Shown here one piece after another: positions 986 through 7,049 of a stretch of 7,208 nucleotides of DNA. Source of the DNA: a virus. Taxonomy: Duplodnaviria; Heunggongvirae; Uroviricota; Caudoviricetes. Each line of letters begins with the position of its first letter. The stretch's first letter is position 1. A model generated the notes under the pieces. That model did no database searches. It was not told the origin of the DNA and worked only from the letters and a program-made list of their open reading frames with translations. The translations under genes were made by a program, and so were the position numbers. The stretch spans positions 1 to 7,208 of the IMG/VR virus record IMGVR_UViG_3300049596_000585. One strand, written 5' to 3'.

Positions 986-1771
986 TTATGAGTGATTTTT
1001 ATTTGATGCTTTGTATTCTACAACCTTCTTATTGGCGTAAAGGAATTTTGTATATGACAGGAATATAACCAGACCTGAAATGAAATAGATGAGGGATATT
1101 ATTAATAATGCTTTTTTTTGGCTGTTATTATCTTTAATTTCCTGACTTAACCATTCCGAGTCCTCCTCGTTTAGCTGTAAGAGCTTATTGCAGGCGATCT
1201 CAGGAAGTGTGTCTTTTATAAATATGTTTCGTAGCCTCTTGCAATCGGCAAGGCTATAAGTTGTATTGAATTCAACTGTTTTATTGTTGAAGGATAAAAG
1301 AACTTTGTCACTATAAACATAGTACATCATATTTTTATATGGTATGCCTATGGCATCTCTTACTATAGCGGATTGTTTGTTGTGTATATAACATGCGAAG
1401 AGAATATAAATAATGCTGGACAGAATTACAATTATTGTTTTAATTATGTGTGGTGGTTTTGTTATGTCACCCCAGAAGCGAGTAAGAAAAAAATACGATG
1501 TTTTTAGTTTTCCATCAATCAGCCCCTGCTGTATCATTCTCACATCTTCGATGCCTGATACATTGATTCCGTTAATTATTTTAAATAGTTGAATGTCGCG
1601 CCATTTTTTGTCGAGCATTTTTAACTTTCTGTCTGAATACTCAAAATTGAAATGATGTGCAATAAACCTCATAAGATTACTTTTACCAAAGGTAATAAAT
1701 GTTAATGCTATTAATAAAAATAGATACAAAGAGATAAACCACCACGCATTAGTCACATTATCACTGAACAT
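986..1771 (-). CDS. AT-rich 261-aa predicted inner-membrane protein with three TM segments, function unknown; cargo gene in the slot where P2 carries orf30, between the head/tail-completion side and gene V
   Basis: ORF track 986..1771 (-). ATG at 1771-1769 is preceded by SD AGGAG (complement of 1778-1782) with a 6-nt spacer. GC content is roughly 25-35% against about 50-55% in the flanks. Hydrophobic segments: aa 9-28 (AWWFISLYLFLLIALTFITF; DNA 1688-1747), aa 109-129 (IIKTIIVILSSIIYILFACYI; about 1385-1447), aa 221-240 (ALLIISLIYFISGLVIFLSY; 1052-1111). Loop 1 and the C-tail are Lys/Arg-rich, so the positive-inside rule suggests N-out/C-in. The second loop (about 90 aa) carries two Cys. No recognisable catalytic motif. 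Confidence 0.8.
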   Translation of the reverse strand: MFSDNVTNAWWFISLYLFLLIALTFITFGKSNLMRFIAHHFNFEYSDRKLKMLDKKWRDIQLFKIINGINVSGIEDVRMIQQGLIDGKLKTSYFFLTRFWGDITKPPHIIKTIIVILSSIIYILFACYIHNKQSAIVRDAIGIPYKNMMYYVYSDKVLLSFNNKTVEFNTTYSLADCKRLRNIFIKDTLPEIACNKLLQLNEEDSEWLSQEIKDNNSQKKALLIISLIYFISGLVIFLSYTKFLYANKKVVEYKASNKNHS

Positions 1772-4280: not shown

Positions 4281-7049
4281 ATGAGCACGAAATTTAAAAC
4301 CGTTATCACTACTGCCGGAGCCGCAAAGCTGGCAGCCGCCACTGTCCCCGGCGGGAAAAAAGTAACCCTGTCTGCAATGGCCGTGGGTGACGGTAATGGC
4401 AAATTGCCGGTGCCGGATGCTGGTCAGACGAAACTGGTGCATGAGGTCTGGCGTCACGCCCTGAATAAAGTCAGCGTGGATAACAAGAATAAAAACTATA
4501 TCGTGGCTGAACTGGTTGTACCGCCAGAAGTGGGCGGCTTCTGGATGCGTGAACTTGGTCTGTATGACGATGCCGGAACACTGATTGCGGTCGCTAACAT
4601 GGTAGAAAGCTATAAGCCTGAACTGGCTGAAGGCTCCGGGCGTGCGCAGACCTGCCGCATGGTTATTATTGTCAGTAACGTGGCGTCTGTTGAGCTGAGT
4701 ATTGATGCCAGCACGGTGATGGCGACGCAGGATTACGTCGATAAAGCCATATCCAGTTTTCATCGTACTGTCATTGATGATGTGGTTCTTCAGCATAAAG
4801 TTGTCCACGATATTGACTACGCCGGGATTTTTGACGGTGCGGATAATATGAGTCAGGGGTTCTGTATCTGTGATACGCCGCAGGGAACCAGAATGTTTCT
4901 GCATCAGCCTGTATCGGGTGGCGTAAGGATTGTTGAAACGACATTTAACCCTGACGGAGAAAACGAAAACCCGACGGTCATTTCGTTTTCTCCCGTTTTC
5001 GCTGATATTGGTCACCAGAGTATCGGGGCTGTATGTGAAGACGGTCGCGTGATGCTGTATACCCCGACCGCTGACGGCAAGGGTGTGAATATCATCAACT
5101 GGAATGGGGCTGACACCAGTCTGTTGATTGTTCAGTCAAGTAATGAAGCCGTCCATCTTCATTACAACAGGGATGACCGCCGCACAGTTTATGTTTTCGA
5201 TCGCGCTTCTCTGACGTTTAAACACCGGATTTATCTGTCCACCCAGTCAATGGTGTCGCAGGCATTTCAGGGGATGGCCAGCGATGGTCATTATCTGTTT
5301 GCTTATTACGGTTATACAGGCGTATTTCTGACTCACCGCATTGTTGTATATAACCTGTCAACGGGCGAAGTTGTCAGACAGTTCAATGTGGATGGCGTTC
5401 GTGCCAGGTATGGCCGCCAGAAAATGCTGGGGAATGCAGAGCTGGGGTATCCCGTTTTGCAGGAAGCCGAAGGGCTGGCTCTTCATAACGGAAAACTGTA
5501 TCTGCTCGATATGGATTTCTGGTGTCAGACAGCAGATGTGGTTTCTTTTGAGGGGGCATACTTTGCAGCACGTGCAACAAATTTTTCTGGCCGTTCCCCG
5601 GTGAATCCATCTTACTGGACGCCTACAGCATATGGAACGGCGGCTGCAACGAAATATGATGCCACGAAGTCTTATACGTGTGGCGTGGCGACAAAACGCA
5701 GCAAAGCTGTGGTTTCCGTGGAGGCTTACGACGGCACAGGCTATCTGGTGGACTCCGGCGTGGCGTTTCCTGACAGCCATGCTAGCCTTTTTCTGAGTCC
5801 CAATGCTGTAAATATTGCCCTGTCACCCAATGAAGACTTCCAGGTGGCAGCCTATGAGCAGAATCTGCGCTCGCATCGCCCGTTATTTGAGGTCAGAAAG
5901 GAGGCTCCGGATACAGACACTTCTGCTGCTGTTTTTCGTTTGTACGGGGATGCGTTCCGAACCGGAGAATACACAGGCCGCTTCGTTCAGTGGAAACACC
6001 GACTGAACACCGTGCACGATTGTCTGGAAATACGCGCTGACGTGGATTTGTTGAGCGGTGGCGGGATTAACCTTTACTCAATGAACGATACTCAGTCGGC
6101 GGGGCGCACAAGGCTTTATTGTACCGATGGCAGTGAGACCTGGTCTGTATTATTGAGTCCGGTCTCGCCGGCATTTCATCCCGACCAGGACAAGGCAATG
6201 AATCTGGGGTCATCGCCAAATCGCTGGAATGTGGCATACCTGCAGGGCGTGAATATTAAATCGGATGACGAAACCCAGAAGCGCATGGCCATCAGCACCA
6301 CGCTGAAGGCGGGAGCTTTCCAGGTATCAACAGCCGGGAATCTGGGTATTTATGACGATTCTGCTGACGCTTATGTAATTGCAGCCCGTAGTGACGGCAC
6401 TGCATTCATGCAGATGGATACAGATATTAACGGTGCATTCCGGCCATCGGTTAACAATACCAGCGACCTGGGTGCGCCCAACAAAGCGTTCCGGAGCGTG
6501 TATCTCTGCAACTCGCCGACCGTTGTGTCGGATGCGACGTTAAAGGATACACCGCGCGATGCGACGGCAGCCGAAAACGCGGCATTTGCAGAAATAGCAC
6601 GGCTTCCGGGCGTGTGGCGCTGGTTACAGAGAATTGAGGAGGAGGGCGAGGACGCGCGTCTGCACGCCGGGCCGACAGTCCAGGCCGCGATAGCGGTGAT
6701 GGAGAAACACGGTCTGGACTGGCGGAAATACAGCGCATTTTGTCTGGATTCGTGGGAAGCGGAGGAGGCACAGTACGAAGATATACCGGAAGAGTATGAA
6801 GATATTCCGGTTCAGCCAGCGATTTATTCGGATGAAGGGGAGCTGTTGAGCGGGACAACTCGTGTGCTTACCCGACAGGCGGAAAGGGTTCTTGTTCGCC
6901 CTGCAACCGAAGCAGGAAGCCGTTATCGCTTCCGGAAAGAGGAGCTTCTCTGGTGGTGTCTACGTGCTGTTGTCAGCCAGGTGGATTTGTTAATGGAACG
7001 CTTTGTTGACTTAAATCGTCGTTTGATGAAGTTGGAGACTTCAGAATAA
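4281..7049 (+). CDS. H: Tail fibre protein gpH-like, mosaic: P2-type N-terminal anchor (about aa 1-160), divergent distal receptor-binding region (about aa 161-749), C-terminal S74-type intramolecular chaperone domain (aa 750-922)
   Basis: ORF track 4281..7049, 922 aa, against about 669 aa for P2 gpH. The N-terminus (MSTKFKTVITTAGAAKLAAA...WRHALNKVSVDNKNKNYIVAELVVPPEVGGFWMRELGLYDDAGTLIAVANMVESYKPELAEGSGR...TQDYVDKAI) has the conserved P2 H anchor character. The remainder does not resemble what I recall of P2 H. The C-terminus carries an SDATLK motif followed by ...RLHAGPTVQAA... and a terminal heptad-like segment (LLWWCLRAVVSQVDLLMERFVDLNRRLMKLE), the pattern of Peptidase_S74 intramolecular chaperone domains. 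Confidence 0.9.
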   Translation: MSTKFKTVITTAGAAKLAAATVPGGKKVTLSAMAVGDGNGKLPVPDAGQTKLVHEVWRHALNKVSVDNKNKNYIVAELVVPPEVGGFWMRELGLYDDAGTLIAVANMVESYKPELAEGSGRAQTCRMVIIVSNVASVELSIDASTVMATQDYVDKAISSFHRTVIDDVVLQHKVVHDIDYAGIFDGADNMSQGFCICDTPQGTRMFLHQPVSGGVRIVETTFNPDGENENPTVISFSPVFADIGHQSIGAVCEDGRVMLYTPTADGKGVNIINWNGADTSLLIVQSSNEAVHLHYNRDDRRTVYVFDRASLTFKHRIYLSTQSMVSQAFQGMASDGHYLFAYYGYTGVFLTHRIVVYNLSTGEVVRQFNVDGVRARYGRQKMLGNAELGYPVLQEAEGLALHNGKLYLLDMDFWCQTADVVSFEGAYFAARATNFSGRSPVNPSYWTPTAYGTAAATKYDATKSYTCGVATKRSKAVVSVEAYDGTGYLVDSGVAFPDSHASLFLSPNAVNIALSPNEDFQVAAYEQNLRSHRPLFEVRKEAPDTDTSAAVFRLYGDAFRTGEYTGRFVQWKHRLNTVHDCLEIRADVDLLSGGGINLYSMNDTQSAGRTRLYCTDGSETWSVLLSPVSPAFHPDQDKAMNLGSSPNRWNVAYLQGVNIKSDDETQKRMAISTTLKAGAFQVSTAGNLGIYDDSADAYVIAARSDGTAFMQMDTDINGAFRPSVNNTSDLGAPNKAFRSVYLCNSPTVVSDATLKDTPRDATAAENAAFAEIARLPGVWRWLQRIEEEGEDARLHAGPTVQAAIAVMEKHGLDWRKYSAFCLDSWEAEEAQYEDIPEEYEDIPVQPAIYSDEGELLSGTTRVLTRQAERVLVRPATEAGSRYRFRKEELLWWCLRAVVSQVDLLMERFVDLNRRLMKLETSE
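6528..7046 (+). other. C-terminal intramolecular chaperone / autoproteolysis domain of the tail fibre (Peptidase_S74-like); predicted cleavage just before Ser750 with a Ser750/Lys755 dyad
   Basis: TCG (Ser750) at 6528-6530 begins SDATLK, with Ser and Lys spaced 5 residues apart as in the endosialidase-type S-D-x-x-x-K dyad. Downstream are an R-x-H-x-G...Q block (ARLHAGPTVQAA) and a C-terminal amphipathic helix. Domain length is about 173 aa. Assignment is by motif recognition only. Confidence 0.6.

Follow-up and report, generated by a model that had tools for sequence, protein, structure and literature searches.

Gene Organization at the Locus

The window analyzed here, a stretch of 7,208 nucleotides, contains a single long open reading frame on the plus strand (4281..7049 in the list of open reading frames), which encodes 922 amino acids plus a stop codon and lies at the position of the tail fibre or tail spike gene H of phage P2. 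The gene at this position was assigned to PHROG 19921, "tail spike protein", and all the features of the protein described below are on the same strand. Homologues of V, W, J and I are found upstream, giving the order V-W-J-I-H that also characterizes P2 and L-413C. The window corresponds to a P2-like prophage carried by E. coli B (REL606, NC_012967, ~2.105–2.112 Mb, reverse strand). This prophage lacks the genes for head and lysis, has only truncated forms of the tube and D genes, and carries a truncated portal gene fused to a truncated S (morphogenesis) gene. With respect to REL606, the copy in the window carries four single-base differences and an in-frame deletion of 90 nt (30 aa), located after residue ~281, bounded by CTG microhomology and leaving a junction at 5118..5125. 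Among the matches listed, which came from 87 complete genomes with a match, the junction was split in every record and contiguous in none, and the exact 922-aa product had no entry in a large protein-position index. At least 80% of the gene was nonetheless present in 83 of the 5426 complete E. coli genomes.

Downstream of H, the gene arrangement differs from that of P2 and L-413C. In the latter two the separate assembly chaperone gene, G, directly follows H, while in REL606, CFSAN061763 and strain 4069 the next gene after H encodes, on the opposite strand, a family-2 glycosyltransferase (GT2), and the sheath gene FI comes after it. Strain 4069 harbors an apparently intact prophage (NZ_CP103673, around 3.09–3.12 Mb), which extends from the portal gene to D and ogr. 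No gpG-like open reading frame of at least 50 aa was present on the plus strand between H and FI, and a tblastn search with L-413C gpG, whose positive control gave 1e-107, returned no match in the stretches fetched around H in three prophage loci, one of them spanning an apparently intact prophage. A chaperone built into the spike presumably takes the place of gpG, an arrangement that fits this gene order.

Mosaic Origin of the Spike

The first 163 residues (4281..4769) constitute an N-terminal baseplate-attachment domain of the P2 gpH type (PF12571, aa 1–151, E 5e-57), and they are 93–95% identical in amino acids and 96–98% identical in nucleotides to Peduovirus H genes, those of P2 and L-413C being equally close at the protein level (93–95%). 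Similarity ends at residue 163, beyond which the protein is unrelated to P2 and L-413C gpH. From there on the relatives are podophage spikes: a tail spike body of podophage derivation (aa 161–719, 4761..6437), recognized by its identity to such spikes and by structural modeling, precedes the C-terminal region, and over aa 161–919 the protein is 75% identical in amino acids to gp75, the spike of the N4-like Escherichia phage Pollock (KM236242), and 49% identical to the spikes of T7-like coliphages with genomes of 44–45 kb. Pollock gp75 carries the same cassette of body and chaperone; the adaptor, however, is of the P2-baseplate type in the protein studied here and suited to a podophage in Pollock, and a prophage gene is being compared with that of a lytic virus. 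The gpH adaptor and the podophage cassette were found together in no deposited phage record. Homologues of the body sit behind three different N-terminal adaptors, namely PF12571 (P2), PF18668 and PF03906 (T7 fibre), which indicates that body and chaperone travel as a cassette. Since chaperone and receptor-binding cassette form part of one polypeptide, this could explain how a podophage spike came to be grafted onto a P2 gpH adaptor without gpG.

The nature of the body itself can be described only tentatively. No sequence relatives of the central region (aa 155–749) were found in the PDB, and the whole protein had no match in NCBIfam. The AlphaFold2 monomer model of aa 155–760 reached a mean pLDDT of 62, with values of 70–90 at aa ~174–494, and Foldseek searches with this model retrieved the propeller receptor-binding proteins of the staphylococcal phages 80alpha, phi11 and P68, the endosialidase of phage phi92 and neuraminidases, all with low TM-scores. 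The model suggests a probable beta-propeller at aa ~174–494, an assignment that is tentative because it relies on Foldseek E-values accompanied by low TM-scores; the beta-rich region that comes next lies beyond the resolution of the monomer model. The endosialidase catalytic domain (PF12219) scored 15 bits (E 0.024) against a cutoff of 25, and this sub-threshold match was given no weight.

A Peptidase S74 Domain at the C-Terminus

The preliminary description of this DNA had proposed a self-cleaving chaperone at the end of the protein, and had named beforehand a search with the Peptidase_S74 profile as a test able to refute the proposal. The search yielded a match to PF13884 ("chaperone of endosialidase") over the full profile, positions 1–58 of 58, at aa 750–812 (6528..6716), with an E-value of 1.9e-9 and a score of 38.1 bits, the curated gathering cutoff of Pfam being 22 bits. 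This core, in which AlphaFold2 places three helices (aa 763–809, pLDDT >90), opens with the motif S750-D-A-T-L-K755 (6528..6545), found where it had been reported and read from the codons tcg gat gcg acg tta aag. The profile, the PDB alignments and the conservation of the motif lead to the prediction that Ser750 is the nucleophile and Lys755 the general base, and the predicted scissile bond is accordingly V749|S750; nt 6528–7046 run from the Ser750 codon through the last sense codon.

Searches of PDB sequences with phmmer retrieved T5 pb1 (4uw8, 2e-15), the endoNF chaperone (3gw6, 5e-6) and phi29 gp12 (3gud, 1e-5), together with the tail fibres or spikes 7y5s, 6eu4 and 9vvr. In every PDB alignment spanning the motif, Ser750 and Lys755 occupied the dyad columns, where the equivalents of SDATLK are ADARLK in T5 pb1 (S1264A mutant), ANGERK in endoNF (S911A mutant), and SDARLK, SDARKK or SDARDK in the others. 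The dyad spacing attributed to the endosialidase and T5 pb1 domains is thus reproduced in register, with S750/K755 aligned to S1264/K1269 of T5 pb1 and S911/K916 of endoNF, whose catalytic roles have been described (PMC4690869, PMC8326128).

Conservation extends well beyond the dyad. When 25 homologues were aligned, N744, D751, K755, R759, R793, H795, G797, T799, V800 and Q801 were invariant, and Ser750 was kept in 24 of them and replaced by Cys in the remaining one. The block expected to follow the motif was recovered as R793-L-H795-A-G797-P-T-V-Q801 (6657..6683), an R-x-H-x-G-x-T-V-Q arrangement invariant at its conserved positions in the same alignment, with REHCGLTVQ and RIHFGVIAQ as its counterparts in T5 pb1 and endoNF, respectively. 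The chaperone (IMC) shares 74% identity with its Pollock counterpart, with dN ~0.2 and dS saturated, the saturation precluding a numerical dN/dS. Pollock, a viable lytic phage, shares unchanged the SDATLK motif, the R-H-G-Q block and also RYRFRKEELLWW, a motif that lies in the C-terminal helix and is conserved across the 25 homologues. A dN of this size with saturated dS, together with unchanged motifs, indicates purifying selection and a domain maintained both in a viable virus and in the prophage lineage.

The predicted structure follows the same pattern. The AlphaFold2 monomer model of aa 700–922 had a mean pLDDT of 82, exceeding 90 over most of aa 760–922 and falling below 60 around the predicted cleavage site, and it shows, in the order typical of the family, three short helices, long beta hairpins and a terminal helix of 36 residues. 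The hairpins (aa 820–884, 6738..6932; strands E121–185 of the modeled fragment, pLDDT 82–97) include an acidic YEDIPEEYEDIP loop and correspond to the "tentacles" described for T5 pb1 and endoNF (PMC4690869, PMC8326128). The C-terminal helical segment noted at the outset appears in the model as a long helix at aa 886–921 (6936..7043; helix H187–222 of the fragment, pLDDT ~90–96), which is predicted to form a trimeric coiled coil, and the domain runs up to the stop codon, at the extreme C-terminus of the spike. When the model was compared with the PDB by Foldseek, the ten best matches were all chaperone structures (3gw6, 4uw8 and 3gud; E 2e-7 to 2e-3), the next match having an E-value of 0.45. 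TM-scores to the solved chaperones were low (0.3–0.4). Values of this order are to be expected when a single chain is modeled and the chains of the domain intertwine in the trimer, but they mean that the fold match rests on the E-values.

The last 173 residues are, then, a clear member of the family of self-cleaving intramolecular chaperones. We are fairly confident that aa 750–922 belong to the intramolecular chaperone auto-processing domains (Peptidase S74/ICA family), with predicted cleavage between V749 and S750 and with the built-in chaperone presumably acting in place of gpG. This is an ordinary domain annotation: the family is known, the protein is of the kind expected, and its cluster already bears the PF13884 label in public resources.

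Proposed Processing of the Spike and the Stalk Position

By analogy with endoNF and T5 pb1, maturation of the spike would begin with the joining of three chains through the C-terminal coiled coil (aa 886–921), after which the tentacles would embrace the upstream stalk and act as a template for it. With the stalk folded, Lys755 would activate Ser750 and the V749–S750 bond would be cut, releasing the C-terminal fragment and leaving a mature spike of aa 1–749. By calculation the full protein has a mass of 101.4 kDa, of which the mature spike would account for 81.5 kDa and aa 750–922 for 19.9 kDa, in line with the fragment of approximately 19 kDa anticipated in the earlier reading. For the 952-aa allele of REL606 (ECB_RS10545) and strain 4069, the full-length protein would be about 105 kDa and the mature spike about 85 kDa.

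The stalk segment just upstream of the predicted cleavage site (...PSVNNTSDLGAPNKAFRSVYLCNSPTVV, aa 720–749, 6438..6527) aligned by phmmer with the ends of the triple-beta-helix stalks of T5 pb1 (4uw8), endoNF (3gw6), AS12 gp42 (6eu4) and 9vvr, while in the monomer model the fold of the stalk was without resolution (pLDDT <50, aa ~585–760). An Arg contributed by the stalk of the neighboring subunit, at position S-14, is crucial in endoNF (R897) and has been proposed to play the same part in T5 (R1250) (PMC4690869, PMC8326128). In the protein studied here this column is occupied by Ala736, and of the residues nearby only K735 (S-15) or R738 (S-12) could stand in for the stalk Arg. The closest relatives, Pollock included, also carry Ala at S-14, and most of them have Lys at S-15, while R738 is common to this protein and AS12 gp42. 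Arg is moreover not universal in the family, as the column holds N, L, A or V in several homologues, and MyRF is cleaved with no stalk residue at its reaction center (PMC8326128). One could speculate, from these sequence comparisons, that the spike lineage formed by this prophage, Pollock and the T7-like coliphages licenses Ser-Lys auto-cleavage by Lys at S-15 instead of stalk Arg at S-14, and that the built-in chaperone allowed a podophage propeller spike to move to the contractile baseplate of P2 while gpG was lost; we regard this combined scenario as rather unlikely, yet if it were true the spike would be a natural template for retargeting P2-type phages or tailocins without a separate chaperone.

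Alternative Interpretations

A Ser-x4-Lys motif is in itself a poor guide to function, and a coincidental occurrence in an unrelated C-terminal region had to be considered, because the composition and size of the protein would lead one to expect about 2.3 such motifs. Only one occurs in the 922 residues, and SDATLK by itself is without significance, the weight resting on the profile match. Chance was ruled out by the full-profile match, the PDB homologues in register and the predicted fold match, and its probability can be taken as negligible. A different possibility, which accepts the homology, is that the C-terminal domain assists trimerization and stays attached, with no auto-proteolysis for want of the canonical stalk Arg that completes the active site. 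The occurrence of Ala736 in the column of endoNF R897 and T5 R1250, and the similar lack of Arg in the closest relatives, speak for it. Both residues of the dyad are, however, strictly kept under purifying selection; the Arg column varies among homologues, and MyRF is cleaved with no stalk residue at the reaction center; and a basic residue is available one or two positions away, as K735 in most close relatives or as R738 in the manner of AS12 gp42. On this balance we consider a permanently attached chaperone improbable, and processing of the spike after V749 remains the reading that we prefer.

More serious is the chance that the domain, although truly homologous to S74, is a relic in this particular copy, whose product may never be assembled or may misfold. 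The prophage is defective on account of its truncated portal, S, tube and D genes and its missing head and lysis genes, and the spike may thus be built into no particle. The 90-nt deletion, unseen in the alleles listed from 87 complete genomes that matched, takes away a portion of the predicted propeller, where the confidence of the AlphaFold2 model collapses (aa 280–298). Cleavage in endoNF requires a correctly folded stalk (PMC8326128), and since processing of this type depends on correct folding, a misfolded copy may stay uncleaved. The reading frame is nevertheless open over all 922 codons, the chaperone is the same as in alleles of apparently intact prophages, and cleavage might persist, given that the chaperone acts on the adjoining stalk, far from the deletion. 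We judge that a relic state has a substantial chance of being correct, though a smaller one than its opposite; it would concern this allele alone and not the nature of the domain, for which assignment to the self-cleaving chaperones stands.

Comparison With Known Systems and Biological Significance

The C-terminal chaperone domain of endoNF, the endosialidase of phage K1F (3GW6), is the founding member of Peptidase S74. The spike studied here shares with it PF13884 and the dyad, S911/K916 corresponding to S750/K755; 3gw6 was also the top Foldseek match, and the upstream body may be propeller-like as in the endosialidases, that of phi92 being among the fold matches. The two differ in that identity is only ~20%, the R897 position is not conserved and the endosialidase catalytic domain PF12219 remains below its cutoff in the spike. 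The best sequence match in the PDB was the L-shaped tail fibre pb1 of T5 (4UW8; PMC4690869), which has, like the spike, S-x4-K in register and the R-x-H-x-G-x-T-V-Q block; the helices, the tentacles and a coiled-coil helix at the C-terminus are likewise common to both, and each of the two trimeric receptor-binding proteins carries the domain at its very end. In contrast, T5 pb1 has Arg1250 (S-14) and Asp1239 (S-25) in the columns held here by Ala736 and Asn725, its chaperone is 133 aa long as compared to 173 aa with an acidic insert, and its upstream domain is a "bullet" rather than a probable propeller. Pollock gp75 is much closer, with an identical SDATLK, Ala at S-14 and Lys at S-15.

Searches of the literature turned up no paper devoted to this gene of the E. 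coli B P2-like prophage, and none that deals with S74 domains in H genes of the P2-like type. What is known of the S74 family is left unchanged by these results; the mosaic origin of the spike and the loss of gpG illustrate the modular exchange of receptor-binding proteins, which comes as no surprise. A receptor-binding module equipped with its own single-use chaperone would explain the absence of the usual tail fibre assembly gene in a P2-type prophage, and the locus shows cleanly how, in nature, a receptor-binding cassette can pass between podophages of the N4-like and T7-like kinds and a temperate phage with a contractile tail. Such a module may be useful for engineering the host range of P2-type phages and tailocins with no need to transfer a chaperone gene along with it.

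Variation in the tail spike

With respect to the REL606 prophage, 90 nt are missing in frame from the tail spike gene H (window 4281-7049, + strand), corresponding to 30 aa, TDVTRTEIFTSDFFTGDEIITVALSVDGSL, with the junction at window 5118-5125 (aa ~281/282) and a CTG microhomology bordering the deletion. Part of the propeller predicted for H, tentatively placed at aa ~174-494 by structure modeling, is lost through this deletion. The junction was contiguous in none of the records among the matches listed, where 87 complete E. coli genomes had a match, and an exact-protein look-up found no record of the 922-aa form of H. Apart from the deletion, the window and REL606 differ by four single-base changes, at positions 7, 30, 1263, and 5120.

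In the C-terminal chaperone (aa 750-922), the nucleophile Ser of the predicted Ser750/Lys755 dyad is replaced by Cys in two homologues, P0003 and P0079 (VVCDARLK, IVCDARLK), which suggests a Cys-Lys version of the putative dyad. Within the acidic loop of the H chaperone is a short, imperfect tandem motif, YEDIPEEYEDIP (window 6777-6812, aa 833-844), which is kept as YEEIPAEYEEVP in the spike of the N4-like Escherichia phage Pollock. Neither T5 pb1 nor the majority of the aligned chaperone homologues has this motif.

Deletion scar and accessory genes of the prophage

At the 5′ end of the window, a truncated portal gene (1-758, - strand) adjoins a truncated virion-morphogenesis gene, S (747-914, + strand). 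The portal/S junction is the scar of a deletion by which the P2-like prophage of E. coli B lost its terminase, capsid, lysis, and R genes, whereas all of them are present in the sister prophage of strain 4069. Upstream of the window in REL606 (locus L001, 1-3404), a set of 'ABC-three component system' genes, one of them for an AAA ATPase, borders the prophage at its truncated portal end and is probably defence cargo.

The interval separating S from V holds an AT-rich ORF of 261 aa in the opposite orientation (window 986-1771, - strand; GC 0.32-0.38 vs. ~0.55 in the flanks), also found in the apparently intact sister prophage. Its product had no significant family match, a DUF6535 match falling below the cutoff; the ORF probably represents a moron that occupies the position of orf30 in P2. 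A family-2 glycosyltransferase is encoded on the - strand between H and FI, just past the 3′ end of the window (11071-12376 in L001; 19072-20613 in L002, the strain 4069 locus), at the site of the P2 Z/fun moron. In strain 4069 the protein has 513 aa with a long (ASQP)n repeat, while the REL606 annotation divides the region into a 370-aa gene and a 71-aa ORF, and the repeat region therefore varies. The glycosyltransferase gene may form a pair with the spike, acting as a conversion gene that modifies the receptor.
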